Below, piece after piece: positions 36,014 to 57,466 of a DNA stretch of 64,000 nt (the first letter of the stretch is position 1; each line of letters begins with the position of its first letter). This DNA is from a virus. Lineage: Duplodnaviria; Heunggongvirae; Uroviricota; Caudoviricetes. Location: positions 1 through 64,000 of the IMG/VR virus record IMGVR_UViG_3300008120_000059. The stretch is one strand, 5' to 3'. Below the pieces are notes generated by a model that was given only the letters and a program-made list of their open reading frames with translations, was not told where the DNA came from and searched no databases. The translations under genes and the position numbers were made by a program.

Positions 36014-36586
36014 TTAAGTAAGGTAATCGATAATCTTTTGTTTTATACCAGATTGTTTGATACCTAAAGTAGATGATGGAGTTAATACAAAATTATCTAA
36101 ACCCCAATCTTTCCAGTCCTCTCCATTTTTACCCATATCCAAATCATCAACAGAAACCCAATGAGTAACTTCAGGGTGGTCGTGTAAAAATTGTTTAATC
36201 TCGATAACGCGAGTCATCTCCAAATCCCATCTCGGTGACCAAACCCATACTTTATCATTATACCAATTACACTGACCTAAATTAGGTGTGAGAGCGATTG
36301 GTTTTTTAGAGATACCTTTTGATTCGTAGTATTCACCCATTTCTTCGAGATTTGCCCACCTCTTCCAATCAGATGACGTTACAATTTCCGCACCTGTTTT
36401 TTCGATGATTTGGTTTAATACCTTAACCGCTTTTTGATTGAAATTATCAAATCGGTATTCTAGTGGCATTTCTGATGTTGTCATAGATAATTTACGACCA
36501 CCCCATTTTTCTTGTTTCTTGAATCGACCACCCCATTCTGACGACAAACAAATTACACCGTCGTGGTCTAAAAATATAACTTTCAT
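36014..36586 (-). CDS. HAD-superfamily hydrolase-like protein
   Basis: N-terminal VIFLDHDGVI (DxDGV) motif. Confidence 0.5.
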   Translation of the reverse strand: MKVIFLDHDGVICLSSEWGGRFKKQEKWGGRKLSMTTSEMPLEYRFDNFNQKAVKVLNQIIEKTGAEIVTSSDWKRWANLEEMGEYYESKGISKKPIALTPNLGQCNWYNDKVWVWSPRWDLEMTRVIEIKQFLHDHPEVTHWVSVDDLDMGKNGEDWKDWGLDNFVLTPSSTLGIKQSGIKQKIIDYLT

Positions 36587-37269
36587 TTATTGAATCTTTT
36601 AAATATTTTAATAAAGTCTGACGAATATTTTTCATAGACAGAATCTTTCCATTCATGATGTTTACCTGTTGACATGTATGCTTGAATCTCGTCATCAATA
36701 ATCGTTTTGTCGTCAGAATATCCACCTTTAATTAAAACTTTTTTCAAATGTTCATAATCTCTATGATTAATATCTCCAATTAAATAATCGACCTCAACTT
36801 TGTATTGTGGGTTTGTATAATAAAATCCGTGAGCTATTTCATGATTCATTACACCACTTTTTACTTTATCAGCGCCGATAAGATACCAAGAATGTTGTTC
36901 ACCACGATTCTTTATTCTACACTCTCTTTCACAGTATTCAATAATTTCATACATAGTATAATCATATTGGGTTCGAGGTAAACCAAACGTATTTTTTGCC
37001 TCTAAAAGAACTTTCGAGGGTATATTATAACCAGTCCAATCGCTTGGATACGTAAAATGAGGTTTTTTATTTGTATCAATGTACAACTTCATGTATTGTT
37101 CTAAAGTGAAAAACTTACCTCTAATCTGTGGGTATGGAGATTCGTAAAATTCTTGGTATCTACAAAACAAGCTAGACCTATCATATTGGTTTTTAACGAT
37201 AACAGCAAATATGAAAGGTTTTATTTCTCTCACTTCACCTTCAATTAATGAATTTGAAATACGCATCAT
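36583..37269 (-). CDS. hypothetical protein with HExxH motif (possible zinc metallopeptidase)
   Basis: VMNHEIAHGFYY. Confidence 0.4.
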   Translation of the reverse strand: MMRISNSLIEGEVREIKPFIFAVIVKNQYDRSSLFCRYQEFYESPYPQIRGKFFTLEQYMKLYIDTNKKPHFTYPSDWTGYNIPSKVLLEAKNTFGLPRTQYDYTMYEIIEYCERECRIKNRGEQHSWYLIGADKVKSGVMNHEIAHGFYYTNPQYKVEVDYLIGDINHRDYEHLKKVLIKGGYSDDKTIIDDEIQAYMSTGKHHEWKDSVYEKYSSDFIKIFKRFNK

Positions 37270-37327
37270 TTTAAGATTTTTTAGTAAATATAACTATTTT
37301 TTTTCAAATTATCACTATATTTGACTT

Positions 37328-37795
37328 GTGAATATATTCTTTCTTGATAAAGATGTAAAAAAATGTGCCGAATATCATTGCGACAAACACGTTGTGAAAA
37401 TGATATTGGAAACTGCACAACTTTTGTGTGGGGCTCATCACATGACCGAACAAGTAACCGGTCAAGTACCGTACAAGTTGTCACATAAAAATCACCCGTG
37501 TTCAATATGGGTAAGAGAATCCTTGACAAACTATCTAATACTCTGTGAATTGGGTTTAGAACTTTGTAAAGAGTACACTTACCGTTATGGTAAACGTCAT
37601 AAATCTCAAGAAGTTATTGAGTGGTGTGTCACAAATAAATTAAAAATTTGTGACAAAGGTTTGACTACACCACCAAAAGCAATGCCAATAGAGTATAAAA
37701 CAGATTGTGTGATTGAATCTTACAGAAACTACTACAGGGGTGCAAAATCAAAATTCACAACATGGAAAAATAGAGATGTACCTCCTTGGTTTTAG
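37328..37795 (+). CDS. hypothetical protein (155 aa)
   Basis: Lone plus-strand ORF in the minus block. Confidence 0.45.
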   Translation: MNIFFLDKDVKKCAEYHCDKHVVKMILETAQLLCGAHHMTEQVTGQVPYKLSHKNHPCSIWVRESLTNYLILCELGLELCKEYTYRYGKRHKSQEVIEWCVTNKLKICDKGLTTPPKAMPIEYKTDCVIESYRNYYRGAKSKFTTWKNRDVPPWF

Positions 37796-38824: not shown

Positions 38825-40228
38825 TTATTTTGAAATATATTCATATTTTTCTTTAGTCCATGTCATATTGGAATATTTCATCATTTTTTTTGATATTTCA
38901 TTTATTGCGGGATTGAAATAAGACTCAACAGGACTATTGGCCTTACCAAAAGACATTATCAAACTACCTTTTTTATATTCTAAATTAATCTTTGTTCGAT
39001 TACATTTCATGGAAAGATAGATATAGACCACACCTTTGCTGAATTGTTTAGACATACAATTTTTCATCATAAATCCTTCAGTGAAAAAATCCTCTTCGGT
39101 TTTGAGTATTTTGGTTTGAAAAACTTTATTGTCAATTATAATGTCAGATTCTATTTCATTTATGAACTCCTCATTAAATGAATATCTTGTTTTGTAACCC
39201 CTTTTAAAATGATTTTTTATGTTTTCAAATTTATTTAAAAGTAATTCTACAGAGTCGGAATCGCTCGCATTAAATTTACAGGGGATATTTTTGGATTCTA
39301 TGAATTCTCGAAGATTCATTAATTTGTTCACCAACTCAACAAAATTATCTTTATATAGGTTTGTGGTTTCCCAATCATTAATAACCTTGACCATCATGGA
39401 TTTTTCTTTATCATTTTTCAAAGTGTGGAATTTTCTGAAATTAGAATTACGTTTTACAATGTCGTGCCACTTAGTTTGTCTTAAATAATCAACGTAACCA
39501 TCACCAAAAAGTTTACATAGAAAGCTTAGACTTTTAATATTCACATCAAAGTTTTGTGGTTTATTTAATTCAGCAATCAAGTACTTTGATTTAATTCCAT
39601 ACGAATCTAAAATAGAAGGTAAAAATTTATTATCATTTAATTTTAACCATTTTTTCTGTGGATACTCTTGTTGAATTGTGGTGTAAACAGTATCATGGTA
39701 TTTTATATTTTTCTTTGATAAATGAAAATCAACTAACAAATCATATAGTGGATTAATATAGCATTTCTCTTGATAATTCTTTTCAATATTAAAATTTGAC
39801 TCAGATTGTATTTTGGATATTAAAATATTAATAATGTCCTGAATTGATTTATTATACCTTTTACCCCAATAATCTTTTCTCTTTTCACCCTTGTACATGC
39901 CGTTTTCTATTAGTGCAAGTATTGAATCAAAATTATTCTTCTTTCTATTATTTTTACTTCTACCTTTATCACCTTCACTCACTGAATAGTTTGATAATTG
40001 GTAGTAAGTATTTATGTCCCCGTTTTTTAAATTAACCGTGAACCCGTGATGGATGGTAAGGATGTTTTTTATTCCGTATCGTAAATAATCGAAAGAAAAA
40101 TCCGCGATATAGTGTATCAAACTATCATATTGATACAACTGTAATTCACAAATCGAAACCGAATTGTTCGTTTTGGATTTTTTGTTTTGATAATGTCTAA
40201 GTAACAAATCCATGTATAAAATATACAT
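38825..40228 (-). CDS. large Lys/Asn-rich protein, paralog A (467 aa)
   Basis: Shares SILDSYGI(K/N)SK, Cx-CxLxG-Y-YL and ILKxEE-EG-M-C blocks with adjacent ORF 40252..42087. Confidence 0.55.
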   Translation of the reverse strand: MYILYMDLLLRHYQNKKSKTNNSVSICELQLYQYDSLIHYIADFSFDYLRYGIKNILTIHHGFTVNLKNGDINTYYQLSNYSVSEGDKGRSKNNRKKNNFDSILALIENGMYKGEKRKDYWGKRYNKSIQDIINILISKIQSESNFNIEKNYQEKCYINPLYDLLVDFHLSKKNIKYHDTVYTTIQQEYPQKKWLKLNDNKFLPSILDSYGIKSKYLIAELNKPQNFDVNIKSLSFLCKLFGDGYVDYLRQTKWHDIVKRNSNFRKFHTLKNDKEKSMMVKVINDWETTNLYKDNFVELVNKLMNLREFIESKNIPCKFNASDSDSVELLLNKFENIKNHFKRGYKTRYSFNEEFINEIESDIIIDNKVFQTKILKTEEDFFTEGFMMKNCMSKQFSKGVVYIYLSMKCNRTKINLEYKKGSLIMSFGKANSPVESYFNPAINEISKKMMKYSNMTWTKEKYEYISK

Positions 40229-40251
40229 GGACTAAATTTAATTATGTAGTA

Positions 40252-42087
40252 TTAAAACTCTATGTCACCATTCATCAGTTGTTCAAATAAATCAGGTTCT
40301 CTTTGGTTGACTTCCTTCCCATTTATTTTAACTTTCACCTTTTTAATATCAATGTGGTTCAATAATCTTTGTGACGCAAATTTTCTAACTCTTTGTTTTA
40401 ATATTTCTAATGATTCACCAAAATACTCAGGTGGTAACTTATTACAAAAATGTCTCTCCTGAATACAGTCACCTGTTTTTTTGTTAAACTCACATGTTAC
40501 TCTATCTGAACCACCGTTGGTCCTCAATGAAATTATCATTGATGATTCTTTGTTTGCGTAACTGGCAACACAGTGGTGCATAAATGTACCCTCTTCCGAA
40601 TATTCTTCTTCTCTCTTTAATATCACAGGAGAAAAAATATGATTGTCGTTCTCAAATCGAGTCTTTATTTGTTCCTCCACTAATCTCACCATTCTGTTGT
40701 CATATTGATATTCGATTGACCAACCCTTTTTGATTAATGAACATGTCTTGGATAGTTCAATGTGCTCTGTATGAAAGTCCGTGTAATTTGTTGCCCTCAT
40801 TTTTATGTTAGGGTCAAATTCACGAATCTTTTCAATCATATCGAAGTGGTCTTTTATCAAAGTGTATATACCTCGAGTAACCGACGATACTGAATGGTCT
40901 CCTGCCGGTTTGGGAATCAGGGAATTTAAAATTTTAATGATATTTTCCCTATCAACATTATCAATAAACAGGTGTCGGTGGTGATTTTTAGCACCTCTCA
41001 ATTCAAGCGGTACCATAGAATGTGCATTACCATTATCTACCATAAAAAGATTAAAACATTCACTTTTCAAAGAACCGAGGTATTTTGGATAATCCTTTCC
41101 AAGTAAATCACACATACATGAAAACTCTTGTAAATTTAATTTTGGATTTTCATGGAAAAGTTTCAAGGTAAATTTTGAATTTATTCCGTAACTATCCAAA
41201 ATAGATTGCATTAATTTTCTCTGATTCTTTTTAAGGTATTTTTCAGTTGGGTAATGTATTTTAATAAGTGGTACAAAGTCGTTTGGTGTTTTTATTTTTT
41301 TCTTTTCCGCAAAGAATTCAATAAAACTAGTTATAAAAAAATGTTTATCAAATAAGTTTCCAACGTTAGTAGGTAAGTTTGGAATGTGATTTTTAATAAC
41401 ATTTACAAATTCGTGTTCATTAAATGTGTCATCAAATTCCTTAGCGATTTTAAGATTGTTACTAAACTCTTTTTTTAAATTGAAAAGACTGTTTGAACCC
41501 AACAAGATTTCTAACGTAGTAAATGAATTTTTTCTAAATCTTTTGGATTTTATCTTTCCAAAATTCATATCCCCAATCGTAAAATCTCCCTTCTGTAAAT
41601 CAATTGTTAACGTCATTACCTTGGAAGATTTACGGAAATATTTCCAATTAAAATCACGATATCTGGTATTCTTGTAACACCTTATGTAAAGTTTACCTTC
41701 TCTAAGTTCTATTGTTCTTTCAAATGTTACAATTTGTATTGATGAGAAAGGATTCCCATAATGTCTTTTTAAATGTTTTTCACTTGTTGTGTAACAAGGT
41801 TCTTTTGTCAATTTTATGAAAGAAACGTATTCTTTTTCTTTTTCACCATAAAAATATTTTGTCCTCGCACCCTTTGATGGTCTTGGTTCCAATTTTATGG
41901 TTTCAAATTTGGTATCCCTATTTACAACGGGCTCAAGTGTCTTAACCTGTTCAGTAAATAAAAAATCATCATCCAGTTCTTTACCATCAGATACAACAAT
42001 TGGTATTGGTCTATCTTCAGACAACATACAATTATCCCTAACTAAATCTATTCTGAAATAAGAAAATCTTTGTTTGATGAGTTGCAT
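40252..42087 (-). CDS. large Lys/Asn-rich protein, paralog B (611 aa)
   Basis: Paralog of 38825..40228; C-terminal EGTFMHHCVASY block. Confidence 0.55.
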   Translation of the reverse strand: MQLIKQRFSYFRIDLVRDNCMLSEDRPIPIVVSDGKELDDDFLFTEQVKTLEPVVNRDTKFETIKLEPRPSKGARTKYFYGEKEKEYVSFIKLTKEPCYTTSEKHLKRHYGNPFSSIQIVTFERTIELREGKLYIRCYKNTRYRDFNWKYFRKSSKVMTLTIDLQKGDFTIGDMNFGKIKSKRFRKNSFTTLEILLGSNSLFNLKKEFSNNLKIAKEFDDTFNEHEFVNVIKNHIPNLPTNVGNLFDKHFFITSFIEFFAEKKKIKTPNDFVPLIKIHYPTEKYLKKNQRKLMQSILDSYGINSKFTLKLFHENPKLNLQEFSCMCDLLGKDYPKYLGSLKSECFNLFMVDNGNAHSMVPLELRGAKNHHRHLFIDNVDRENIIKILNSLIPKPAGDHSVSSVTRGIYTLIKDHFDMIEKIREFDPNIKMRATNYTDFHTEHIELSKTCSLIKKGWSIEYQYDNRMVRLVEEQIKTRFENDNHIFSPVILKREEEYSEEGTFMHHCVASYANKESSMIISLRTNGGSDRVTCEFNKKTGDCIQERHFCNKLPPEYFGESLEILKQRVRKFASQRLLNHIDIKKVKVKINGKEVNQREPDLFEQLMNGDIEF

Positions 42088-42305
42088 TTTTGATATTTTT
42101 TACAAATATACCACTTTTTTAATGATATCCATATTTATTTTTATAAAATTATTAACATGGCAGCAGGAAAAAGTTCAAAAGGTAAATCATCAAACGCATC
42201 TATAAAGGTGAATTTTGGTAAAAGAAGATTAGGTAAAGCTAAAAAATCTTTTAATAAACACGATAAAAGTGAGAAAAACTACCGTGGACAGGGTAGGAGA
42301 ACTAA

Positions 42306-42617
42306 TTAAAAAATACTCCCCAATAACCCAATTAAAGTATAAGATAACTTATACCCTGTGAACGCACCCAATGCCGAAGGGATTGGGAAAACTATCAACT
42401 TACCTAAATCTGTAACGTACTTTGGTCGATTAACTATCCGACCCATGTAATAATAGTAGACAATATAACCGATAAGAACAGCAAAGTCGGTTCTTGTTGC
42501 AATAAAAACAACAAGTGTCGCTCCGATGAAACCGAAAGTAAAATTGTCTCTAATTCCTTCCCATATCTCATAAGTTGTAGCATTTTTATATTCTTTTACG
42601 ATTTTACGGAGCTTCAC
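42306..42617 (-). CDS. membrane protein (103 aa)
   Basis: Three hydrophobic helices. Confidence 0.45.
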   Translation of the reverse strand: MKLRKIVKEYKNATTYEIWEGIRDNFTFGFIGATLVVFIATRTDFAVLIGYIVYYYYMGRIVNRPKYVTDLGKLIVFPIPSALGAFTGYKLSYTLIGLLGSIF

Positions 42618-44438: not shown

Positions 44439-45764
44439 TTAATTACTTAAGGGTGCTTTAATCGATGGGTGTGATTGATAATTTTCGATTTGAAAATCCT
44501 TATTTTCCAAATGAGTTATTAAAGATGAGTCTTCAGATAATGATTTATAAAATTCATCGGTCTTCATATGTTTTAGTTTGGGTAATTTATAAGGTTCTCT
44601 TGTGTATCGTGGTATTTTATATATCTCATAATATTCAGACATACCTCCACCAAATGGTGCTAAGTCTTTCAACGCACTTTTATAACCATTAGGACCCATC
44701 GCCTCTTTTAACATACCTTCTCTCTCTTCATGTGTATACTTTCTACCGATTTGTTCTCTTGCTTGTTCAACATGGTTACTATACAAATGAGTATCACCTA
44801 AATTACCAATCAACTCATCAGGTACCATATTTACTTCTTTAGCAATAATCTCAAGTAACAAACCGTAAGAAGCAATATTGAATGGTAGACCTAAGAATGT
44901 GTCTACTGAGCGTTGATTCCACATTAAAGAGATTGCTCGTTTAGGAACTCTTAAACTATCCATGTGAACATCGTGATAATCACTACTTTGATTTAAAGGG
45001 TCTTTTGTTGAGTTATAATAATTAATCCTTTCATCTAAACTCAACTCTCTCGTATAAACTTGAAATCCATAATGACAAGGTGGAAGAACCATTTGGTCCA
45101 GCTCTCCAACATTCCAAGCATTGACCATTAATCGTCTTGAGTCTGGATTTGTTTTAAGGTCGTTGATTAGGTTTGTGATTTGGTCTATTGAATTGTTTTG
45201 GTATTCTATTTTGACACCATACTTGGTAACATCTTCACCGATTTCAATTGCTTTTAGTACTCTGTGTTGGTCAGAACCTTTTACATCCTTTAAGTCGTAA
45301 TTAGTCACATTCTTTCTACCCCATCTTCTCCATTGCTTACCATACACAGGTCCGAGGTCACCCCACTTCTTAGCAAACTCATCATCGGTTTTTATTTTGT
45401 TGATGAATTCTTCTTTTGTTAATCGAAATCCTAACTCTAACATTTTTTCTTTTGACATATTAGGTAAGATTTTGGCATCTTCAATTAGATAGTTCTTATA
45501 CGCATCACCATCCCAAATATGACAATTGTTATCAACAAGGAACTTGATGTTTGTATCACCACGAAGGAACCATAACAATTCGGTTACCATCGTCTTCCAC
45601 GCCATTTTCTTGGTTGTAAGTAATGGAAACCCATCGGACATTTTATGACGGATTGTATAACCAAAAATAGATTTGGTTCCTGTACCTGTACGGTCTTTCT
45701 TTTCTACCCCATAATCTATAATAGTTTGGAGTAAGTCTGTGTATTGTTTATCTAATTTGTTCAT
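44439..45764 (-). CDS. thyA: thymidylate synthase (ThyA-type; or related dUMP hydroxymethylase) with three ~35 aa insertions and C-terminal extension
   Basis: DLGPVYGKQWR, SRRLMVNAWN, LPPCHYGFQVY, PFNIASYGLLLEIIA, GDTHLYSNH signature blocks; 441 aa vs about 265-320 typical. Confidence 0.8.
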   Translation of the reverse strand: MNKLDKQYTDLLQTIIDYGVEKKDRTGTGTKSIFGYTIRHKMSDGFPLLTTKKMAWKTMVTELLWFLRGDTNIKFLVDNNCHIWDGDAYKNYLIEDAKILPNMSKEKMLELGFRLTKEEFINKIKTDDEFAKKWGDLGPVYGKQWRRWGRKNVTNYDLKDVKGSDQHRVLKAIEIGEDVTKYGVKIEYQNNSIDQITNLINDLKTNPDSRRLMVNAWNVGELDQMVLPPCHYGFQVYTRELSLDERINYYNSTKDPLNQSSDYHDVHMDSLRVPKRAISLMWNQRSVDTFLGLPFNIASYGLLLEIIAKEVNMVPDELIGNLGDTHLYSNHVEQAREQIGRKYTHEEREGMLKEAMGPNGYKSALKDLAPFGGGMSEYYEIYKIPRYTREPYKLPKLKHMKTDEFYKSLSEDSSLITHLENKDFQIENYQSHPSIKAPLSN

Positions 45765-46378
45765 TACTCAAATGTTTGAATTTTTGCGTCTACTTCTTTT
45801 AATTCAGACCACGTTCCAAGATACGTAATCGCTCTGACTTTTCTATTATCAATCCACACATATTCTTGGTCATCTTTGATTCTTGGTTTGTCCATAACCA
45901 ATCCGTGATATTTAAAACCTTTTTCTTTTAACCATGTTTCGGTTACTTCACGGTCTTTACTTTCACGAGCGGTAAAAAATGTAATTACATTTCCCTCATC
46001 GTACCATTTGTTGATGATACCCAACGCGTTTGGGTAATGGTTAGCTGTCGGATAAAGATGTGAATCTTCATTTTTAATGTCGTCACAAATTGTCCCATCA
46101 ATATCAATCAGAAAAACCCGACTAACCATTTTTTGCGTTATTATGATGTCAGCAATTGTACTATGAAAAATATCATCGTACATTACTTGACAATTTGTTT
46201 TTAAAACATACTCGACTTCATCACCGTCTTTTACATCATATTTTCCGCTTTTTATTTTTTCTAAAGTTTCTTTTGATGCTTCAAAATTCTTTGATGAATC
46301 TTCAGAAACAATAAACCATCCTTCGACACTGTTAATAAGTTCGTCAGATTTTTTTTGATATATTAATTTACCTTTCAT
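45764..46378 (-). CDS. HAD-like phosphatase domain protein (204 aa)
   Basis: VFLIDIDGTICDD (DxDGT) motif in C-terminal half. Confidence 0.5.
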   Translation of the reverse strand: MKGKLIYQKKSDELINSVEGWFIVSEDSSKNFEASKETLEKIKSGKYDVKDGDEVEYVLKTNCQVMYDDIFHSTIADIIITQKMVSRVFLIDIDGTICDDIKNEDSHLYPTANHYPNALGIINKWYDEGNVITFFTARESKDREVTETWLKEKGFKYHGLVMDKPRIKDDQEYVWIDNRKVRAITYLGTWSELKEVDAKIQTFE

Positions 46379-46772
46379 TTCTAACCCATTTTCTATCTGA
46401 ATTTAATGTAAAAGCACCAATAAAATCGTCACCCCGATTCCAATCTTTTGGTGATAATAATGATAATGTATTTACACCATTAAAATTATATAAGTAATAT
46501 GTTTCACCAACAATTGGGTCAAAAGAAATTTTTGATTCCCAAACCATTATTGAATCCACATACTCTCTTTGAAGTTTTTCTATTGATTGAATGATTTCTT
46601 CTCTTTGACGATTAAAGACATCAATCATTTTTTTTGAGGACTCTTTTTTTACGAGACCCACATTAGGTAATTCAAATTTTGGCGAACCGATACTGGTAGG
46701 ATAATGCTTTCTATTAGCGTCGTACCCATTTGTTTCATCCCAAACAACAATATCAGGTTTCTTTTTATTCAT
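46368..46772 (-). CDS. hypothetical protein (134 aa)
   Basis: ORF. Confidence 0.45.
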   Translation of the reverse strand: MNKKKPDIVVWDETNGYDANRKHYPTSIGSPKFELPNVGLVKKESSKKMIDVFNRQREEIIQSIEKLQREYVDSIMVWESKISFDPIVGETYYLYNFNGVNTLSLLSPKDWNRGDDFIGAFTLNSDRKWVRNER

Positions 46773-46924
46773 CCTCCAAACCGTCCATTAAAGTTACGTC
46801 CCAATCTGAAAAATCGTCACCTAATTCCATACCCAATTTCAAATTTTCCAAAAAATTTTTTTCCCATTCCTCATAAGAAAGATTTGAGTTGGGATTTTGT
46901 TTAATGTAAATTTTATATTGTCTT

Positions 46925-47353
46925 TTAAGGGTTGACATCGTTTTGTTCAGAATCTCTTATGTCAATTAATTTTTGAATTCTACTCCTACCTTTTTCACCA
47001 ATTGGTACCGGATTACCTTCTTCATCAATCCTAACAAACCTTATGTTTGTTTTCAAGATGACAATTTGGTTACCTGTGTAAACATTATGTGCTCTTGCTT
47101 CCATATACAAGGTAACTGAAGTATTCCCTAATTTACTTGGTGACCCGTAAATTTTAATCAACTGACCCTCTTTGGCTGGTTTTTCAAAAAAACATTTATC
47201 AATTGATACGGTAACTAATCTTGGTGAATCACACAATTGCATGGAGTATCCCGCAGCCGCCGCGTCAATCCACGCTAAAAGTTTTCCACCGAATAAATTT
47301 CCGTGGAATCCTAAATCCGACTTTTTTATGGGGTGTGAATTCAAAAATTCCAT
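46925..47353 (-). CDS. hotdog-fold acyl-CoA thioesterase (YciA-like)
   Basis: GNLFGGKLLAWIDAAAAGYSM block. Confidence 0.6.
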   Translation of the reverse strand: MEFLNSHPIKKSDLGFHGNLFGGKLLAWIDAAAAGYSMQLCDSPRLVTVSIDKCFFEKPAKEGQLIKIYGSPSKLGNTSVTLYMEARAHNVYTGNQIVILKTNIRFVRIDEEGNPVPIGEKGRSRIQKLIDIRDSEQNDVNP

Positions 47354-47523
47354 TACTCAAAAGTTATTTGTTCTCTAATAATGTATTCTTTTAATGCGTT
47401 TTCCGCTTCTATTTTAGTTGCAAAAACCCCAATAGTTTGGTCAAATTCTGTTGGGTCGGACACACCAAATTGTCCGTTTAATGTTTCATAAATGAACGTA
47501 TCTAAAATTTGTTGACTTACCAT
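47353..47523 (-). CDS. small protein (56 aa; below ORF-track cutoff)
   Basis: Reverse-strand ORF MVSQQILDTFIYETLNGQFGVSDPTEFDQTIGVFATKIEAENALKEYIIREQITFE; TAATG overlap with thioesterase start. Confidence 0.4.
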   Translation of the reverse strand: MVSQQILDTFIYETLNGQFGVSDPTEFDQTIGVFATKIEAENALKEYIIREQITFE

Positions 47524-47530
47524 AATTAAT

Positions 47531-47695
47531 TTATATTTCTTGATTTTTATTTGATTCCGATTCTTGATTTATTGATTCAGAATTTTTAGTCTCTTGCATT
47601 TTCTTAAATAAATTCATCAATGTGGACTCTTCTCTCTTTAATCTTTGATTACGAGCTTGAACTTTTTTTCTATGTTCTTTGTCTTTTTTTCCCAT
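47531..47695 (-). CDS. small basic protein (54 aa; below ORF-track cutoff)
   Basis: Reverse-strand ORF MGKKDKEHRKKVQARNQRLKREESTLMNLFKKMQETKNSESINQESESNKNQEI. Confidence 0.35.
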   Translation of the reverse strand: MGKKDKEHRKKVQARNQRLKREESTLMNLFKKMQETKNSESINQESESNKNQEI

Positions 47696-47701
47696 GGTAT
47701 T

Positions 47702-48826
47702 TTATTCTTCTTCATCTTTTCGATAACTTTCCAAGAGTTCCTCCCCTGAAAGTGTACCGTATTTATTTACAATTTTTTCGGTGTCTATTTCAACATTCAT
47801 CATGTGATGAACATTATTTAATTCTTCGGCTAATGATAAACTATCACTAATCACTTTAACGATTTTATATGGGTCCGCGTGTGATGCTGGTCTCCTGTCT
47901 TCAAGATAACCCTTCCATGTCTCACCAACGGATTTTGGTACACGGATAGATGCACCTCTGTCTGAGACACCCCAACTAAATTTATCAATAGATTGTGTCT
48001 CAAAATGACCTGTTAATCTCAAATGGTTATCAGAACCATAAGAGTCAATATGTTCTTGTGTTCTTGATTCAAAAGACCTAAAAATTGCATTGAAGTATTG
48101 TTCACCACCCTCTTCTCTCATTTTTTGATTTGAGAAATTTGTATGTAAACCTGAACCGTTCCATTCTCCGTGGGTCATCGGTTTGGGATGTAACTCAATA
48201 GAACGACCATATTTCTCAGCAATTTTATGTAAAAAATATCTACTCATCCATAAATCATCAGAAGCGGCAATTTTACCTGTTGCAAAAATTTGGTATTCCC
48301 ATTGACCTAATGCAACCTCTGAATTGGTTCCCTCCACATTGATGTCATATTTTAAACACATGTTCAAATGTTCATCAGAAATATTTCGACCAACAATATG
48401 TCCACCTACACCACAATAATAAATTCCTTGACCGTCAATGATACCATTTCTTTCAAATCCAAGAATTGGATTATTATGTGAAGAACGAATAAAATATTCC
48501 TGTTCAAATCCAACCCAAAAATTTACATCTTCCTCACCTACTTTTGCTCTATGATTTGATGGATGAATTTCATTATTACCATCTAAAACCTCACATAATA
48601 CATATACTGTATCAAGTGAACTATTTGTATGATATAATTTTACTGGCTTAAGATAACAATCTGAAAAGTTACCTTCCGCTTGTTTAGTTGAGCTTCCGTC
48701 AAACCCCCAATTGGGGATGTGTTTCAATTCAAATGGTGCCGGTAGGTCCACAATTTTTATTTTACTTCTGAGATTTGGCTCAGGGGAATACCCATCAAGC
48801 CATACGTATTCTACTTTTGTTTTCAT
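47702..48826 (-). CDS. glutamine synthetase type II (eukaryote-like GSII)
   Basis: EYVWLDG, NWGFDGSST, GFEQEY, YYCGVG, TNSEVALGQWEYQI, WNGSGLHTNFS, GASIRVP blocks align along the full 374 aa. Confidence 0.8.
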   Translation of the reverse strand: MKTKVEYVWLDGYSPEPNLRSKIKIVDLPAPFELKHIPNWGFDGSSTKQAEGNFSDCYLKPVKLYHTNSSLDTVYVLCEVLDGNNEIHPSNHRAKVGEEDVNFWVGFEQEYFIRSSHNNPILGFERNGIIDGQGIYYCGVGGHIVGRNISDEHLNMCLKYDINVEGTNSEVALGQWEYQIFATGKIAASDDLWMSRYFLHKIAEKYGRSIELHPKPMTHGEWNGSGLHTNFSNQKMREEGGEQYFNAIFRSFESRTQEHIDSYGSDNHLRLTGHFETQSIDKFSWGVSDRGASIRVPKSVGETWKGYLEDRRPASHADPYKIVKVISDSLSLAEELNNVHHMMNVEIDTEKIVNKYGTLSGEELLESYRKDEEE

Positions 48827-49810: not shown

Positions 49811-50665
49811 TTATTCTTCAAACATTACCAGTTGTTTCTTTTGGTTATCATAATCAATCAATCTCTGTTGAGATATCTTTGTGTAAGATTCTGATAACTC
49901 AAAACCAATATAATTTCTATTCAGCTTCTTAGCTGACAAAGCGGTGGTTCCACTTCCTGAAAAACAATCAACAATCAGGTCATTTTGATAGGAAAGTATT
50001 TTTATTGCTTTCATTGGGATGTCCATGGAGAATGTGGCTTTAGTTAAAGATTTTGTGTCGTTGAAGTATTTCCATTGACCAAAGACTAATTCCATGAATT
50101 CGTTTTTGTCTTTATCTGAATAAACCCTTTTGTTTTTAAAATTACCTTCCTCGTTTTCGACCTCAATCTGATTATAAGACCATTGAGATATACCTTTTTC
50201 TTTCTTTTTGTAATCTTTCTTATATGCAAGAATTACACATTCTTTTGGATTGTATATGTATGGTGATGATGGTGACATCCAAGAACCCCAAGCGGTTGTT
50301 TTAGAACGGTGTGGAGAATCCTCCTCTAAGTCCACAACACCAAAGAATCCAAAACCAATCTCTTTCATCATCTGCCAATATTCAGATACTAAGAAAATTC
50401 TCCCACCTCTTTCTCTAACGTTTATTTCATATGGTATATTCAAGGCAATTCTACCATCATCTTTTAATGTACGGTAAACTTCGGATAACCATTTCTTACA
50501 CCACTCAAAATACTCATCCATCGGAGCATCGTCTTTGTGCACATCATAACTAATACCGACATTGTACGGTGGACTCGTAACAAAGAGGTCTACAGTACCG
50601 TCATTTAACTCCTTAAACAGTTCTAAGCAGTCACCCTGATAAATTTTATTCATTTCCATTGACAA
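49811..50665 (-). CDS. DNA methyltransferase, beta-class amino-MTase (N4-cytosine/N6-adenine), SPPY motif
   Basis: Motif IV DLFVTSPPYN near N-terminus and motif I VDCFSGSGTT near C-terminus (beta permutation); no adjacent restriction endonuclease. Confidence 0.8.
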   Translation of the reverse strand: MSMEMNKIYQGDCLELFKELNDGTVDLFVTSPPYNVGISYDVHKDDAPMDEYFEWCKKWLSEVYRTLKDDGRIALNIPYEINVRERGGRIFLVSEYWQMMKEIGFGFFGVVDLEEDSPHRSKTTAWGSWMSPSSPYIYNPKECVILAYKKDYKKKEKGISQWSYNQIEVENEEGNFKNKRVYSDKDKNEFMELVFGQWKYFNDTKSLTKATFSMDIPMKAIKILSYQNDLIVDCFSGSGTTALSAKKLNRNYIGFELSESYTKISQQRLIDYDNQKKQLVMFEE

Positions 50666-51258: not shown

Positions 51259-52716
51259 ATGATTACAATAGGTTACAGTACAAGAGAGTCCAACCCAAAA
51301 TTTCAAGAATATTTAAAAAAAACTTGTGGACACCCCAAAGTTCAAGTTATTGAAAAAGTAAACAATGGTGAAAAAAGTCTTTCACAAACTTACAATGAAA
51401 TTATTCAAGAGTCGATTCATGATATTGTCGTACTTTGTCATGATGACATTTACTTTAATACGACTTCGTGGGGTAGAAAATTAGTCAAACATTTTGAAGA
51501 ATCTGACTACGGGATTCTCGGTGTTGCCGGTACAACCAATATTCATGAGAGTGGTAGGTGGTGGACAGATAATACCAAAATGGTTGGTATTGTTAATCAT
51601 GAAAATGAGGGTAAAAAATGGGAATCGAGATATGCAAATGGAATCCCAAATTCAATTCACGAAGTTTGTTTAGTGGATGGTTTATTCATTGGAATCCACA
51701 AAAACAGAATAAAACACACTTTTGATGAGTCAGTACCGGGTTTTCATTTTTATGATATGGTATTCTGTACTAGCAATCACTTAAGTGAGGTAAACATCGG
51801 TGTTATATACAACATAAGAATCACTCACAAATCAATCGGAATGACCAATGATTCTTGGGAAAAGAATAGGGAATTTTACATTGAAAAATTTAAAGAGAAC
51901 CTACCAATTAATATAACACCAAAAATTGATTATGACATAACCAAACCAAAACAGTTTAAAGATAAATTTAATTTAATAGTTCAAACATCAAACGATAATG
52001 AAAATTTAATTCAGTTTTTTGAAAACATAAAAAAATTACCAGTGTTTGATAGTTTACAGATTTCACTCATCTCGACGGATACCAATATAGACAATATTAG
52101 AGAATTTGAATCTGAAAATATTAAAATTTACGAGGGTTTTTTTGATACATTAAATAAAAACTTATCAGTACTGAAATGGGATGAATCGTTTATGGAATCA
52201 AAAACAGATTTGTTATTTTTCAGTAATGATACTGTTACCGTATTGAACGACGTTTTCTCAAGTATGTATTCAATATTTAAGAGTGAAAAAAATACTTTTG
52301 GGTGCGTCTTTCCTACAGTATTAGAAAACGACCGAACAATTTTTTCAAATGGATTGGATATAGTTCAAAACAACGAACAGTTCAATTTAATTTTTAAAAA
52401 CAAATCATCTTTTTTCAATATTTTACACGGACACTTTCCAAACAATTTTGGTAGTATTAGTGACTTTTTTGCCACTACATCTACAAATTTAAAAATGATT
52501 GATTGGTTTGATATTAATTTAGAAACATCAATTTATAACTTAGATTTTGCGTTGAAAACTTTACTTAAAAAACGTAAAACATTCATTGACACAAACAGTG
52601 TGGTAATGATTGATATGGCATCAAAATTTGAAAAGGTTGATGTTGAATTAAAACAAGTCTTAGGTCAGTACATAAACTCACCTGAAATTAGAAAAAATAT
52701 CAAACAATTAAGATGA
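51259..52716 (+). CDS. two-domain putative glycosyltransferase (485 aa); N-terminal GT-A-like
   Basis: N-terminal Rossmann-like region with VVLCHDD (DxD-like); first gene of glycan island. Confidence 0.5.
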   Translation: MITIGYSTRESNPKFQEYLKKTCGHPKVQVIEKVNNGEKSLSQTYNEIIQESIHDIVVLCHDDIYFNTTSWGRKLVKHFEESDYGILGVAGTTNIHESGRWWTDNTKMVGIVNHENEGKKWESRYANGIPNSIHEVCLVDGLFIGIHKNRIKHTFDESVPGFHFYDMVFCTSNHLSEVNIGVIYNIRITHKSIGMTNDSWEKNREFYIEKFKENLPINITPKIDYDITKPKQFKDKFNLIVQTSNDNENLIQFFENIKKLPVFDSLQISLISTDTNIDNIREFESENIKIYEGFFDTLNKNLSVLKWDESFMESKTDLLFFSNDTVTVLNDVFSSMYSIFKSEKNTFGCVFPTVLENDRTIFSNGLDIVQNNEQFNLIFKNKSSFFNILHGHFPNNFGSISDFFATTSTNLKMIDWFDINLETSIYNLDFALKTLLKKRKTFIDTNSVVMIDMASKFEKVDVELKQVLGQYINSPEIRKNIKQLR

Positions 52717-53492
52717 TAAAAATTGTATCGGGATTTACAGAAAAAGGTGGTTCTACCACTTTTTTTATAAACTTAACAAATTTCTTAAATGAAAATGGTA
52801 TTGATTGCACATTTTACGGTAATCAGAATTACCATTTAGACAAATGTAAATCAGGGAACATTGAAAAAGATTTAAAGTATGAATCTGATGATATTGTAAT
52901 TACCCATTTTTTACAACTACAGGAAAGACCACCTGTTAAAAAAGTTATTTTGTCTTGTCATGAAAAATGGTGGTTCCCTGTTGGTAAAATTAAACAGTAT
53001 TGGGACCTGTGCGTGTTTTTACATGAAGAGCATCGAAAATATCACTCGGATTACAGGGGTGATTATGTAATAATACCAAACATCAAAGAAAATTTAATTA
53101 TTTCAAATAAAGAGCTGGTAAGAAATATTGCAGGAATTATTGGTACAATTGAAGACAGAAAACAGACCCATGTGTCAATACAAAGAGCATTAAAAGACAG
53201 GTGTGAAAAAATCTATTTGTTCGGTCACATCGGTGACCAAAACTATTTTGACAAATTGGTAAAACCTTTAATGAATCCAAGAGTAATTCATTACGGTCAC
53301 ACCACCAATAAACAAGAAATGTACGATATGATTGGTAAGGTATATCACTCATCAAAGGGTGAGGTTGCTTGTTTGGTTAAAGATGAATGTTATTTAACCG
53401 GTACAGAGTTTTATGGTAATGAAGAGACTATGAATGAAGTTTCTAAATTAAGTAACGAAGAGATATTAACACTTTGGAAAAACATATTTTAA
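52713..53492 (+). CDS. compact GT-B-like putative glycosyltransferase (259 aa)
   Basis: GGSTTFFINLTNFLNENG N-terminal and ...YHSSKGE... C-terminal blocks; weak. Confidence 0.4.
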   Translation: MIKIVSGFTEKGGSTTFFINLTNFLNENGIDCTFYGNQNYHLDKCKSGNIEKDLKYESDDIVITHFLQLQERPPVKKVILSCHEKWWFPVGKIKQYWDLCVFLHEEHRKYHSDYRGDYVIIPNIKENLIISNKELVRNIAGIIGTIEDRKQTHVSIQRALKDRCEKIYLFGHIGDQNYFDKLVKPLMNPRVIHYGHTTNKQEMYDMIGKVYHSSKGEVACLVKDECYLTGTEFYGNEETMNEVSKLSNEEILTLWKNIF

Positions 53493-53493
53493 A

Positions 53494-54216
53494 ATGAAGA
53501 TACACGCACATATACTGTCATGGAATGAAGAAAAAATATTACCATTCACATTGGATTACTATAGTACAATCTGTGAAAAAATATTCATATACGATAATAT
53601 GTCAACGGACTCCTCTGATGAGATTTATAAGAGGTACCCAAAAGTTGAGGTTATTAAATGGGATAGTGGTAATGAAATAAATGAAATTAATTACGTAAAC
53701 ATTAAATCCGAAGAGTATAAAAAAAGAAGTAGAGGTCAGGGTGTTGATTGGGTTATAGTTTGTGACTGTGATGAGTTTATATACCATGAAAATCTTATGG
53801 ATAAACTTCAAGAGTACAAAGAAATGGGTATAACCGTCCCAAGAATAGACGGTCACGACATGGTTAGTACTGAATTTCCAATATACGACGGTGAATTCAT
53901 TACAACAAAAATTAAAACAGGTTCACAAACGTATGAACCAATGTGTAAAAATATAATTTTTCATCCTGATTTAGATATAAAATACGGCATTGGTGGTCAC
54001 AGTTTTAATTCTGTTGATGGTAAATTTTCGGATGAGCGGGAAATAAAACTTCTTCACTATAAATTCTTGGGTAAAGACTACGTGAAGAACATTTACATTT
54101 CAAGAGCAAAGAGATTGTCATCGTTCAATAAACAACATAAATTCGGTGAACATTATTTTAATTTACCATTCAATTACATGGACAGCATGTTAAAAGAAAA
54201 TTATCAAGTTATATGA
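53494..54216 (+). CDS. GT-A-fold glycosyltransferase (Glyco_tranf_2_4-like)
   Basis: ILSWNEEKILPFTLDYY ... IYDNMSTDSSDEI ... CDCDEF. Confidence 0.5.
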   Translation: MKIHAHILSWNEEKILPFTLDYYSTICEKIFIYDNMSTDSSDEIYKRYPKVEVIKWDSGNEINEINYVNIKSEEYKKRSRGQGVDWVIVCDCDEFIYHENLMDKLQEYKEMGITVPRIDGHDMVSTEFPIYDGEFITTKIKTGSQTYEPMCKNIIFHPDLDIKYGIGGHSFNSVDGKFSDEREIKLLHYKFLGKDYVKNIYISRAKRLSSFNKQHKFGEHYFNLPFNYMDSMLKENYQVI

Positions 54217-55034
54217 GGAAAATACTTATATCGGATTTTACCATTAAAGAAGTACCTCACGGTGGTTCTGAATGGGTGAATCAAGTTTTAATTGATAGAT
54301 TTAATCTTGAGTTTGAATATTCAAACCAAGTCAAGTCATTTGATTACAACGCCCTGTATATTATATCAAATATTTCTTTGATGAACCCAAACTTGGTTAA
54401 TCAAATACAAAATTTGAACTACGTCATTATTGAAAACGATTATAAAATATGTGCAAGTAGACACCCATGGAGATATACCGACAACATAATTCCGATTGAG
54501 GAAAGAACCAACTATTCTCTTTACCGGAATGCAAAAGCGGTATTTGTTCAAACAACCGACCACATGAACGTTTATCTTAAAAACGATGTTGTTGCTAATT
54601 TTATAAATCTGAATAGTTCGATATGGTCAAATGAGGACTTAGAATTATTGAGGAATTTAAATAAATCCAACAATGTTAAAAACGACAAATATTCTGTTTA
54701 CTATACAAATAATTGGATAAAGAACACCCAAGGTAGTCTGAAGTATTGTTCTGAAAATAAATTACCGGTCCATATTCTTAAAGAATCTAAAGACAGAGTT
54801 GAATTTTTAAGTAATATGGCCAAATGTAAAGGTATTGTGTTTTTCCCGATAGCAAGAGAAACTTTTTGTAGACTGGTTGTTGAGGCAAAATGTTTAGGTT
54901 TGGAAGTAATAACGACACAAAATTATGGTGCAAGTTTAGAAGAATGGTTTAATAGGTTATCAGGTGATGAATTAATTGATTTCTTAGAAACTAACACTTT
55001 AAAAAATTTAGAAATCATTTCAACTTATATATGA
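54213..55034 (+). CDS. GT-B-like (GT4-type) putative glycosyltransferase (273 aa)
   Basis: C-terminal ETFCRLVVEAKCLGLEVITT resembles the GT4 E-x7-E region. Confidence 0.4.
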   Translation: MRKILISDFTIKEVPHGGSEWVNQVLIDRFNLEFEYSNQVKSFDYNALYIISNISLMNPNLVNQIQNLNYVIIENDYKICASRHPWRYTDNIIPIEERTNYSLYRNAKAVFVQTTDHMNVYLKNDVVANFINLNSSIWSNEDLELLRNLNKSNNVKNDKYSVYYTNNWIKNTQGSLKYCSENKLPVHILKESKDRVEFLSNMAKCKGIVFFPIARETFCRLVVEAKCLGLEVITTQNYGASLEEWFNRLSGDELIDFLETNTLKNLEIISTYI

Positions 55035-56748: not shown

Positions 56749-57460
56749 AAAGTATATTGAAGATTTTAATTCGTTTTGGGAAAAGATAGATAGTCGAACT
56801 AACTTTTCTTTTGTTAGATATGCCGATGGTGAAGTGATGTTAATGAATAATTCACCGATAGAAAAGAATACACAAGCGTATCAAAACGATAAATGGTTTT
56901 CGAGTGGGGGACAAACCAAATTAGGTGTGGATTTAAATGAATGTATAGGGTTGAACGACCCAAATTTTTATTTTGCAATATCCTCCAAAACTGATAGTAT
57001 TAGAGACTATAATTTTTTATATGATAGAATACAAAATAAATCAAACATTACATTTGCTAACCTATGGATTAACGCAAATTACAAAGAAAATATATCAAGA
57101 ATAAGAAATATAAATCGAGATGTTGTTTTAATTTGTAATGAAAATTGTGATTTAAAAAACATACCATTTAGTGTATCAGAATTTGTACCGTTCCCTAATG
57201 ATTGTGTAAACTATTGGGAAGAACATAGAGATTCGTTTTTAGAAAAAATATACAATGTTTCTTCAAAATATAAAGATACTTTATTTATCGTATGTTGTGG
57301 ACCAACATCTGCTGTTATCATAAAACATATGTTTACAAATAATAGTAATAACACTTATATTGATTTTGGTTCCGCATTAGATGTATTCATACATAATAAA
57401 ATAACTAGACCATACATGTATGAAGGGTCACAATATCATAATCACATATCAAAATTTTAA
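56741..57460 (+). CDS. hypothetical protein in glycan island (239 aa)
   Basis: ORF with overlapping start. Confidence 0.45.
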   Translation: MIEKYIEDFNSFWEKIDSRTNFSFVRYADGEVMLMNNSPIEKNTQAYQNDKWFSSGGQTKLGVDLNECIGLNDPNFYFAISSKTDSIRDYNFLYDRIQNKSNITFANLWINANYKENISRIRNINRDVVLICNENCDLKNIPFSVSEFVPFPNDCVNYWEEHRDSFLEKIYNVSSKYKDTLFIVCCGPTSAVIIKHMFTNNSNNTYIDFGSALDVFIHNKITRPYMYEGSQYHNHISKF

Positions 57461-57466
57461 TTCAGT

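Follow-up and report, generated by a model that had tools for sequence, protein, structure and literature searches.

A tandem pair of PcfJ-like genes, conserved across related viral loci, with a predicted hairpin over the start codon of the second gene

Introduction

What are the two large proteins encoded side by side by ORF-B and ORF-A of a tailed-phage genome, and could they work together? The two genes lie in a 64,000-nucleotide stretch of viral DNA (positions 1 to 64,000 of IMG/VR record IMGVR_UViG_3300008120_000059), which was analysed whole and is called the window here. A preliminary description, made from the sequence alone, had read them as tandem, Lys/Asn-rich paralogues that share a C-terminal Cys/His block suggestive of metal or nucleic-acid binding, had assigned them to no described family, and had proposed them as candidates for an arms race with the host. 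We asked how the two proteins are related, to which family they belong, how the pair is organized and conserved, and which of several readings of its function best fits these data. The family that emerged, the PcfJ-like proteins, is widespread on conjugative plasmids (pCF10 and the IncI2 mcr-1 plasmids), Bacteroidales integrative and conjugative elements (ICEs) and phages, and the literature that we searched reports no function for its members.

Results

Both ORFs were found on the minus strand of the window (Table 1), and both products are rich in Lys and Asn (13.1% and 10.3% in ORF-A, 10.8% and 6.9% in ORF-B). A pairwise alignment, which the preliminary description had named as one check, revealed that their similarity is conserved in blocks and is not an effect of composition. 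Composition-adjusted BLASTP gave 24% identity over ~460 residues (E = 1e-19), the Smith-Waterman score was 277 versus 50.8 ± 7.2 for 300 shuffles (z = 31), and hhalign joined the two family profiles over 390 columns with a probability of 99.9% (E = 7e-35). The quoted blocks were all recovered, namely SILDSYGIKSKY / SILDSYGINSKF, LCKLFGDGYVDYL / MCDLLGKDYPKYL and EGFMMKNCMSKQF / EEGTFMHHCVASY, and the first of them, in the middle of the proteins, is the best-conserved stretch between the ORF-A and ORF-B families. A helix-hairpin-helix was considered for this SILDSYGIKSK block and rejected, as none was returned when 21 middle-block segments were run against Pfam (E ≤ 10) or in a PDB profile search. 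Among the 48 proteins of the window, ORF-A and ORF-B are the sole paralogous pair and the only PcfJ-like ORFs.

The size first given for ORF-B, 611 amino acids (aa), stands. The 467 aa given for ORF-A is the length of its longest ORF, but translation most probably starts at the second ATG (M6, position 40213, MDLLL) and yields 462 aa, since M6, D7 and L8 are nearly invariant in orthologues and public gene calls choose this start. The first ATG (40228) falls inside the 5' arm of a palindrome.

Table 1. Positions in the window of the two genes, their conserved blocks and the putative control elements
Feature	Coordinates	Strand	Description
Bacteroidota-type -7 promoter box TATATTTG	42103..42110	(-)	15 nt 5' of ORF-B start
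ORF-B	40252..42087	(-)	611 aa, full-length PcfJ-like protein, intact family signature
ORF-B middle block SILDSYGINSKF, common to both proteins	41170..41205	(-)	
C-terminal PcfJ domain of ORF-B	40426..40839	(-)	Residues 417-554; Pfam match, translation checked
ORF-B signature block EEGTFMHHCVASY	40558..40596	(-)	Residues 498-510
B-A junction element	40207..40251	(-)	38-nt spacer 40214-40251 containing TACTACATAAT; predicted 12-bp hairpin 40207-40233
ORF-A	38825..40213	(-)	462 aa from conserved start; 467 aa (38825-40228) from first ATG; divergent PcfJ-like paralogue
ORF-A middle block SILDSYGIKSKY, common to both proteins	39581..39616	(-)	
ORF-A degenerate signature EGFMMKNCMSKQF	39041..39079	(-)	Residues 384-396, 467-aa numbering

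Profile searches supplied a described family, which the preliminary description had been unable to assign. ORF-B scored 43.9 bits (E = 2.7e-11) on Pfam PF14284 (PcfJ-like), whose gathering cutoff is 25 bits for the whole-protein score; residues 417 to 554 cover profile positions 5 to 141 of 147, and we place ORF-B in this family on that match. Relatives are already named "PcfJ-like protein" in NCBI, and PF14284 is present in all of the >200 full-length ORF-B homologues. When searched against 1.84 billion representatives, the ORF-B profile returned 330 clusters (50% identity) at E ≤ 1e-30, and the best 150 matches were solely full-length B-type proteins. ORF-A had no match in Pfam (E ≤ 1), PHROG, NCBIfam or PADLOC, and none of its >300 homologues (462 to 470 aa) has a Pfam match. 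It is a divergent PcfJ-like subfamily that none of the profile libraries tried recognizes, and it joins the family via ORF-B, through the profile comparison given above. Against the single pCF10 PcfJ sequence, hhalign gave E = 3.8e-4 for the ORF-B family but a probability of 36% (97 columns), and E = 0.026 with a probability of 1.9% for the ORF-A family. NCBIfam and PADLOC scans of the pair gave no usable match (PADLOC none at E ≤ 1), and PHROG matches fell in two families without known function.

AlphaFold2 models (pLDDT 83.3 for ORF-B and 89.9 for ORF-A) place the predicted elements of the two proteins in the same order, with a shared architecture of an N-terminal antiparallel β-sheet, a helical middle and a C-terminal α/β PcfJ domain. 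A Foldseek search of BFVD with the ORF-B model gave 13 matches at E < 1e-3, of which 8 are named PcfJ-like and the others are unnamed, uncharacterized, or LP65 Orf137. The alignments span 460 to 650 columns, with E values from 2e-25 to 1e-4 and sequence identities of 8 to 20%. Because they run along the whole length, the entire multidomain architecture, beyond the Pfam domain, is common to ORF-B and phage PcfJ-like proteins. ORF-A and ORF-B are full-length members of the PcfJ-like superfamily. Searches of 50,697 GenBank phage records (INPHARED), with each protein by tblastn and with the region at the nucleotide level, gave no match. Four long, distant relatives (921, 652, 614 and 568 aa) had no fused domains when scanned with Pfam, and a search with the C-terminal profile of plasmid and ICE PcfJ proteins returned only short fragments with PF14284 alone.

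The C-terminal Cys/His block, singled out early on, proved to be the most diagnostic part of the pair. ORF-B keeps the signature E-G-x-x-M-H-H-C-V ... E ... Q ... N, together with the DH and EH helices. In the C-terminal domain of 80 further orthologues, E441, H442, E499, G500, M503, H504, H505, C506 and V507 are unchanged in every sequence, as are Y510, S516, S520, R522, R529, T531, E533, Q543 and N549; H505-C506-V507 is invariant in 67 orthologues and in these 80. The HCV motif, a feature in the Pfam description of PF14284, also occurs in the PcfJ of pCF10, in those of Bacteroidales and in others, and is present in ORF-B and absent from ORF-A. There, NCM (N390-C391-M392, invariant) stands in its place; E384, M388, K389, N390, C391 and Q395 are identical in 77 of 78 further orthologues, the remaining row being a gap. 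The sites that match ORF-B E533 and Q543 hold Gln in 75 and 74 of the 78, respectively, and equivalents of H414, H442 and H505 are missing, which leaves C391 as the sole one of the conserved Cys/His residues in the C-terminal module. The replacements in ORF-A are near-isosteric and are invariant in their turn (H505 to Asn; E533 to Gln in most orthologues). The 78 ORF-A and the 80 ORF-B orthologues have separate sets of invariant residues.

One potential explanation for this pattern is a metal site. ORF-B would then depend on a metal such as zinc, as an enzyme or as a nucleic-acid binder, with a site made of H414, H442, H504, H505 and C506, and ORF-A would be metal free. These five are the His/Cys residues invariant in 80 of 80 ORF-B orthologues; H505, C506 and, in part, H442 are common to ORF-B and plasmid PcfJ proteins, and the joint loss of H414, H442 and H505 in ORF-A is what would be expected if they formed one site. 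However, an adjacent His-Cys is not classical chelating geometry, the other Cys and His residues vary (C532 and C548 to Ser; H546 to Tyr or Ser), and a single Cys is universal in the superfamily-wide comparison. Moreover, neither Pfam nor NCBIfam gave a zinc-finger, HNH, deaminase or other metal-site profile match, and no structural neighbor was found. We regard a metal site as an unlikely reading.

A diverged known enzyme fold in the C-terminal module seems improbable. A restriction-endonuclease-like PD-(D/E)xK nuclease has an α-β-β-β-α-β core with D...(D/E)xK, to which E...E...Q-x-(R/K) could correspond here. The predicted topology of ORF-B is compatible, but the motif reads E...Q-x-(R/K/Q/Y) and the structural neighbors include no nuclease. 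For a GNAT-like acyltransferase, a strong structural match together with the acetyl-CoA loop Q/R-x-x-G-x-G/A was not found. PDB profile searches with the full ORF-B family, the middle block and the superfamily C-terminal profile gave nothing meaningful, structure comparison found no solved structure that resembles either protein, and the pair matched no characterized enzyme or binding domain in fold or sequence.

We then looked at the DNA around the two genes. In Bacteroidetes, a promoter consensus has been described, Shine-Dalgarno sequences are lacking, and initiation is sensitive to structure around the start codon (PMC6847099). We applied this consensus, TAnnTTTG, to a phage that probably infects Bacteroidota. 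Of 53 distinct sequences upstream of ORF-B, 51 have the box ending 14 to 26 nt before the gene starts, versus 0.025 expected. A scan of the region for sigma-70 promoters and terminators gave nothing above background. The spacer between the genes is of near-constant length (~36 nt; 35 to 38 nt in 61 of 69 loci), and alignment of the junction points to a covariation-supported RNA hairpin that would sequester the ORF-A start codon, which lies in its 3' arm. The alignment contains 10 consensus pairs, 97.3% paired, 5 of them with compensatory changes, a level that 0 of 500 shuffles reached. In five sequences, a change of ATG to GTG is paired with one of CCAT to CCAC. Thirteen alignment cells hold G-U versus one with A-C, an excess that favors an RNA of the sense strand, and the junction window folds at -14.1 kcal/mol (z = -2.97).

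A covariance model of the junction matched this junction only in 759 kb searched, and Rfam holds no match for the hairpin. One further match (36 bits), in locus L065, was considered as the mark of a displaced A gene and rejected; on reading, it is an ordinary terminator-like hairpin. ACTACAYAAT, a motif that shows no enrichment in the rest of the window, is therefore no general phage promoter. Since the hairpin begins ~15 to 20 nt past the ORF-B stop codon, its unwinding by a terminating ribosome is not assured, and it could act as a weak attenuator.

How are PcfJ genes arranged in other elements? On pCF10, the PcfK and PcfJ genes overlap, and six genome loci, most of them from Bacteroidales (L009, L010, L012, L013, L014 and L017), have PcfK directly 5' of PcfJ. 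IncI2 plasmids have a topB-pcfJ arrangement (PMC13431907), which we also found in L016. Taken together, the PcfJ genes of conjugative elements adjoin PcfK/AcrIIA9, primase-like genes, ssb or topoisomerase III, and AcrIIA9, an anti-CRISPR protein, carries a PcfK domain (PMC6739104). No PcfK homologue (PF14058) was detectable in the window, including next to the PcfJ-like genes. The one candidate, at 16770-17465, which tblastn and HMM searches picked up weakly, proved to encode a calcineurin-like phosphoesterase. Profile comparison of PcfK with ORF-B showed no similarity (probability, 0.2%), which rules out PcfK as a relative of the ORF-B N-terminal extension.

Of 80 related viral contigs (IMG/VR) of up to 335 kb, 78 retain the order B then A, and the pair also occurs in contigs of 301 to 351 kb at 37 to 44% identity. 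The clade is one of very large phages, probably of Bacteroidota. Genes near the pair encode thymidylate synthase, a DenV-like glycosylase, HAD phosphatases, a DNA methylase and a helicase. Median identities in the same loci are 38% for ORF-B, 45% for ORF-A and 51% for thymidylate synthase, so that the enzyme has diverged to nearly the same degree as the two proteins. The duplication is older than the radiation of the phage clade, and the pair is an old, conserved bicistronic unit. In locus L065, ORF-B is present and no ORF-A lies within 6.9 kb, which suggests that B may work alone.

These data bear on the idea that the genes are independent, fast-diverging duplicates that serve as host-interaction, anti-defense or counter-defense factors. 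In its favor, plasmid members of the family adjoin PcfK/AcrIIA9 and lie near ArdA and ssb, PcfJ-like domains are occasional targets of diversity-generating retroelements (DGRs) (PMC5758913), and a host-type promoter before B fits early expression. However, the duplication predates the clade, with presence, order and spacing fixed in all but two of the 80 loci; divergence is no faster than that of neighboring housekeeping-type genes; each copy holds dozens of invariant residues; and PADLOC gave no match. The proposed survey of copy number across related loci found no variation, with two copies per locus and two in the window. We consider an arms race driven by such duplicates unlikely, although the pair may still have an anti-defense or host-interaction role, given that plasmid PcfJ adjoins PcfK/AcrIIA9.

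That the pair encodes virion or injected proteins of a giant phage is very improbable: both proteins are large with extended β-sheet N-terminal domains, and paralogous structural protein pairs are common in large phages, but the family also resides on elements that form no virions (conjugative plasmids and ICEs), its neighbors here serve nucleotide metabolism and DNA repair, the pair has a promoter of the host vegetative type, and no PHROG structural category matched.

Discussion

Our preferred reading, to which we give a probability of about one half, is that the pair forms a coexpressed two-subunit module acting on DNA or host defense, in which B has an intact site and A is a partner with a degenerate one. 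The two proteins would function jointly, and a hetero-oligomer is the likeliest form. To judge from conservation patterns, the working pocket for catalysis or ligand binding would lie in B, and A would be a partner of the pseudo-enzyme type that keeps its structure. The hairpin would set or gate the amount of A relative to B; Bacteroidota lack Shine-Dalgarno sequences and initiation needs an unstructured start region. More speculatively, the module might act on DNA or host defense during establishment of the element in a newly entered cell, by analogy with the PcfJ genes of conjugative elements and their neighbors.

The relatives behind the analogy with establishment and anti-defense genes are distant, at ~25 to 30% identity over ~90 residues, and the association is one of guilt by neighborhood.

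A more far-reaching version would hold that the PcfJ superfamily consists of Cys/His-dependent enzymes with which plasmids, ICEs and phages establish themselves in a new host, and that the phage form is an obligate heteromer in which B is the active enzyme, A, a pseudo-enzyme paralogue, replaces PcfK/AcrIIA9, and the hairpin sets the stoichiometry. We think this is a long shot.

The result so far is a corrected annotation with testable leads; the system is of no new kind, and its family is a named one. New here are the promoter box before B and the start-codon hairpin, and the observation that plasmid and ICE PcfJ genes sit beside PcfK or topoisomerase III instead. The phage clade offers a diverse family, with the 330 clusters noted above, that comes in fixed pairs, one copy of which has already had its signature "mutated" by evolution. 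These natural changes in ORF-A make H414, H442, H505 and E533 the residues worth testing. If the more far-reaching version holds, the pair would be a defined two-gene system with built-in "mutant" information on PcfJ function; if the PcfK/AcrIIA9 neighborhood is a functional link, the pair could join the anti-defense and establishment toolkit of giant phages. The junction hairpin, which is small, would serve as a simple model of translational control in Bacteroidota.

How does the pair compare with known systems? Bacillus phage Shbh1 A0A142F1B5, Lactobacillus phage LP65 Orf137 and the uncultured Caudovirales protein A0A6J5LA76 resemble ORF-B over 460 to 650 columns, and differ from it in that just 8 to 20% of residues are identical. 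Enterococcus faecalis pCF10 PcfJ shares with ORF-B the signature EG..(M/L).HCV ... (T/L)xE ... Q ... N, and in Bacteroidales PcfJ, as in pCF10 PcfJ, EG..(M/L).HCV aligns with EEGTFMHHCVASY. Like ORF-B, these proteins are borne on mobile elements, are 430 to 610 aa long and have the domain at the C terminus (residues 253 to 411 of the 427- to 431-aa Bacteroidales proteins); identity between pCF10 PcfJ and ORF-B is ~25% over ~95 residues, and the N terminus of ORF-B is ~160 residues longer. ORF-A departs from PF14284 members, as it has no match to the Pfam model and has NCM for HCV.

In organization, the PcfK-PcfJ genes of conjugative plasmids and Bacteroidales ICEs are like B-A: two genes on one strand, tightly spaced, with a fixed partner for PcfJ. 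PcfK precedes PcfJ, whereas here the partner follows, and PcfK is a protein of 134 to 258 aa, whereas the phage partner is a 462-aa PcfJ paralogue. As in enzyme/pseudo-enzyme paralogue pairs in general, one copy retains every signature residue and the other has invariant, conservative ("dead") changes, His to Asn and Glu to Gln. As in start-codon-sequestering hairpins in general, the downstream start codon at this junction, as read from sequence, would be base paired in a conserved stem.

Tandem paralogues on the minus strand

The upstream gene of the pair, ORF-B, and its downstream paralogue, ORF-A, lie on the minus strand where the preliminary description had placed them (see table), and the sequence blocks it quoted were found in both proteins. 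BLASTP with composition adjustment aligned the two over ~460 residues at 24% identity (E 1e-19), and their Smith-Waterman score was 277 versus 50.8 ± 7.2 for 300 shuffles of ORF-B (z = 31). Comparison of family profiles built from 67 ORF-B and 63 ORF-A homologues aligned 390 columns with 99.9% probability (E 7e-35). These data uphold the proposed paralogy and rule out a similarity that is compositional only. The window holds exactly two PcfJ-like ORFs, and no further paralogue of either was found among its other proteins. The true start of ORF-A is most probably the second ATG (40213, MDLLL), which gives 462 aa, because this start is conserved in orthologues and is chosen in public gene calls; residue numbers here follow the 467-aa ORF.

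Coordinates of the paralogue pair, its regulatory elements and selected window genes
Feature	Position	Strand	Remark
ORF-A	38825-40228	-	467 aa as longest ORF
B-A junction element, spacer and hairpin	40207-40251	-	same junction in related loci L004 and L019-L098
ORF-B	40252-42087	-	611 aa
Bacteroidota -7 promoter box TATATTTG	42103-42110	-	15 nt upstream of ORF-B start
50-aa ORF, very basic (MAAGKSSKGKSSNASIKVNFGKRRLGKAKK...)	42157-42309	+	divergent from ORF-B
Thymidylate synthase	44439-45764	-	unusually long, 441 aa
N6/N4 DNA methylase	49811-50665		

ORF-B is PcfJ-like and ORF-A is a divergent subfamily

Although the preliminary description could not place the pair in a described family, residues 417-554 of ORF-B match Pfam PF14284 (PcfJ-like) at 43.9 bits versus a cut-off of 25, and one full-length homologue is named "PcfJ-like protein" by NCBI. 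PF14284 is also precomputed in all listed full-length ORF-B homologues except one 437-aa entry. Profile matches to the B family comprised 330 clusters (50% identity) at E ≤ 1e-30 and 1175 at E ≤ 1e-3. ORF-A had no match in Pfam, PHROGs, NCBIfam or PADLOC and is a divergent subfamily reached through ORF-B alone. The C terminus of PcfJ from plasmid pCF10 aligns with both families via EG..(M/L).HCV, (T/L)xE(F/Y), Q and N.

AlphaFold gave confident models of ORF-B (pLDDT 83.3, pTM 0.68) and ORF-A (pLDDT 89.9, pTM 0.75), both predicted to run from a long antiparallel beta-sheet through a helical middle to a C-terminal alpha/beta module. Foldseek searches of predicted viral structures with the ORF-B model returned mostly PcfJ-like targets (E 2e-25 to 1e-4), with matches in Bacillus phage Shbh1, Lactobacillus phage LP65 and uncultured phages. 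Because these alignments span 460-650 columns, the model indicates that ORF-B is PcfJ-like in its whole architecture, beyond the Pfam domain.

Across 80 further B orthologues, D413, H414, E441, H442, E499, G500, M503, H504, H505 and C506 were invariant (80/80), as were V507, Y510, S516, S520, R522, R529, T531, E533, Q543 and N549. ORF-A orthologues retain E384, G385, M388, C391, G421 and N431 and have invariant residues of their own (K389, Q395, N415 and K429); the DH and EH pairs are absent from them, N390 replaces H505, and Q usually replaces E533. The core common to B, A and the PcfJ of plasmids and integrative elements (ICE) is L...EG..M..C...(E/Q)...Q...N. The His-to-Asn and Glu-to-Gln changes in A are near-isosteric and may be of the type that non-catalytic paralogues of enzymes show. 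The C-terminal block may bind metal or nucleic acid, as the preliminary description suggested.

The pair is fixed in gene order

The duplicates had been put forward as candidate arms-race factors. We surveyed 80 IMG/VR loci with a B gene at 34-77% identity to ORF-B, and B was followed by A on the same strand in 78 of them. One exception was cut by a contig end; the other (IMGVR_UViG_3300020731_000027, B at 6659-8635) has different genes and no A within 6.9 kb downstream, and is the only related locus of that kind. The same order was found in 301-kb and 351-kb contigs of other sources. At the same loci, B and A had median identities to the window proteins of 38% and 45%, respectively, while thymidylate synthase reached 51% and a 228-aa neighbor 50%. 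Because this divergence is near that of the two neighbors, the pair evolves like ordinary conserved phage genes, and these comparisons argue for an old and fixed pair rather than an arms-race duplication.

A short Chthonomonadaceae MAG contig (DATGJU010000111.1) carries two PcfJ-like ORFs 1.7 kb apart (1452-3293, 614 aa; 4975-6678, 568 aa), both with the HCV signature; PcfJ paralogue pairs therefore exist outside the phage clade without a degenerate-site copy.

A conserved hairpin covers the ORF-A start codon

In 61 of 69 loci, the B stop and the conserved A start were 35-38 nt apart (~36 nt; 38 nt in the window). The spacer consensus is TAA-CTACACAAT-n-TAAAT, followed by a perfect hairpin, AAATCCATATATA-TTT-TATATATGGATTT, which is 10-17 bp long across loci and holds the A start codon inside its 3' arm. 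Among 40 distinct sequences, 97.3% of cells pair, 5 of 10 hairpin pairs show compensatory double changes (18 cells), and in five sequences a change of ATG to GTG is matched by CCAT to CCAC. These pairing and covariation values were reached by 0 of 500 shuffles, and slid controls paired at 19-47%. Since G-U cells (13) far exceed A-C cells (1), the pattern points to a sense-strand RNA structure, not DNA. The window hairpin (40233-40207) has a folding energy of -14.1 kcal/mol (z -2.97). A covariance model gave one strong match per locus, always at the junction, over 759 kb that included loci outside model building; the linear spacer motif was not enriched elsewhere, and Rfam had no match at the junction. 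Bacteroidetes lack Shine-Dalgarno sequences and tune initiation by structure around the start codon (PMC6847099), so the conserved stem would be expected to limit or gate translation of A relative to B.

Of 53 distinct sequences upstream of B, 51 (0.025 expected) contain TAnnTTTG, the Bacteroidota -7 promoter consensus (PMC6847099), with its end 14-26 nt from the B start. This suggests that the host belongs to the Bacteroidota and that its RNA polymerase carries out transcription. The start of the divergent 50-aa ORF, ATGGCAAA (other strand, TTTGCCAT), is found again in most related loci, and a gene of 43-68 aa is called there in five of them (L001-L005). This ORF overlaps a terminator-like hairpin predicted on the opposite strand (42279-42296).

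The window derives from very large uncultured phages

Metagenomic contigs, the longest of them 288 kb, encode an identical ORF-A protein, and both genes have relatives on IMG/VR viral contigs and in other assemblies, at lengths of 245-351 kb. Full-length relatives were absent from 185,579 species-representative bacterial and archaeal genomes and from GenBank phages. Given these large contigs and absences, the source is an uncultured clade of very large phages. We infer a Bacteroidota host from the promoter box, a Por_Secre_tail gene in a related contig and one homologue labelled by NCBI as coming from a Bacteroidota MAG.

The window encodes a helicase, thymidylate synthase, DenV-like glycosylase, HAD phosphatases, N6/N4 DNA methylase and a glutamine-synthetase-like gene, along with numerous PHROG families without a known function. 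Its thymidylate synthase matches Pfam in two stretches, the last ending near residue 344, and would therefore have an insertion and a ~90-residue C-terminal extension; the relative in locus L004 has 379 aa. An auxiliary cluster (45764-48826, minus strand) encodes a HAD/LNS2-like phosphatase, DUF2452, a 4HBT thioesterase and the glutamine-synthetase-like protein (374 aa). Just downstream of the pair (36014-37795) are a HAD_SAK_2 protein, whose domain is found in RNA-repair "Swiss army knife" proteins, the conserved 228-aa protein, which has no known function, and the divergently oriented DenV-like pyrimidine-dimer glycosylase (phrog_624); the first two genes still lie near the pair in distant relatives. 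On the plus strand, 15 ORFs of 196-485 aa are closely packed within 51259-63368, and many overlap the next one by a few bases. One matches phrog_29538 (unknown function), and a single weakly similar pair was found among them (58069-58803 and 61693-62310, E 7e-5).

Proposed role and comparison with other PcfJ loci

ORF-B and ORF-A are the two cistrons of one unit and encode homologous PcfJ-type proteins; a host-type promoter precedes the first, their spacing is fixed, and a hairpin covers the start codon of the second. We give about even odds (roughly 0.5) to a model in which the two products would act jointly, B bearing the functional pocket and A serving as a partner whose structure is conserved but whose site is degenerate, its dosage controlled by the junction hairpin. 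More speculative is the proposal, by analogy with the gene neighborhoods of plasmid PcfJ, that the module would act at an early stage of infection and target DNA or host defence.

No function was assigned to PcfJ-like proteins in the literature searched. In pCF10 (15874-17984), the gene upstream of pcfJ is annotated "Cas9 inhibitor AcrIIA9 family" and overlaps pcfJ by 10 nt; the Pfam PcfK domain is present in AcrIIA9 (PMC6739104). PcfK (PF14058) lies directly 5' of PcfJ in a Prevotella MAG, Heminiphilus faecis and four more genome loci. The two genes overlap or adjoin in conjugative elements of Bacillota and Bacteroidales (pCF10; L009, 6571-8273; L017, 6639-8360). In L009, genes for DUF6577 and an AbiEii toxin come next, and L017 has a reverse transcriptase two genes downstream. 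IncI2 mcr-1 plasmids have the order hha-topB-pcfJ (PMC13431907, PMC8594834), and a PcfJ-like gene adjoins topoisomerase III in a Burkholderiales MAG.

The findings on the pair overturn no expectations; they provide clear experimental handles on a widespread PcfJ-like family of unknown function. New here are a degenerate-site subfamily (A) outside all profile libraries tested, within a named but uncharacterised family, a junction hairpin without earlier description, and an obligate B-A arrangement in place of PcfK-PcfJ. PcfK was not found in the window. Whereas in conjugative elements the partner PcfK precedes PcfJ, in the phage clade the PcfJ paralogue A follows B.
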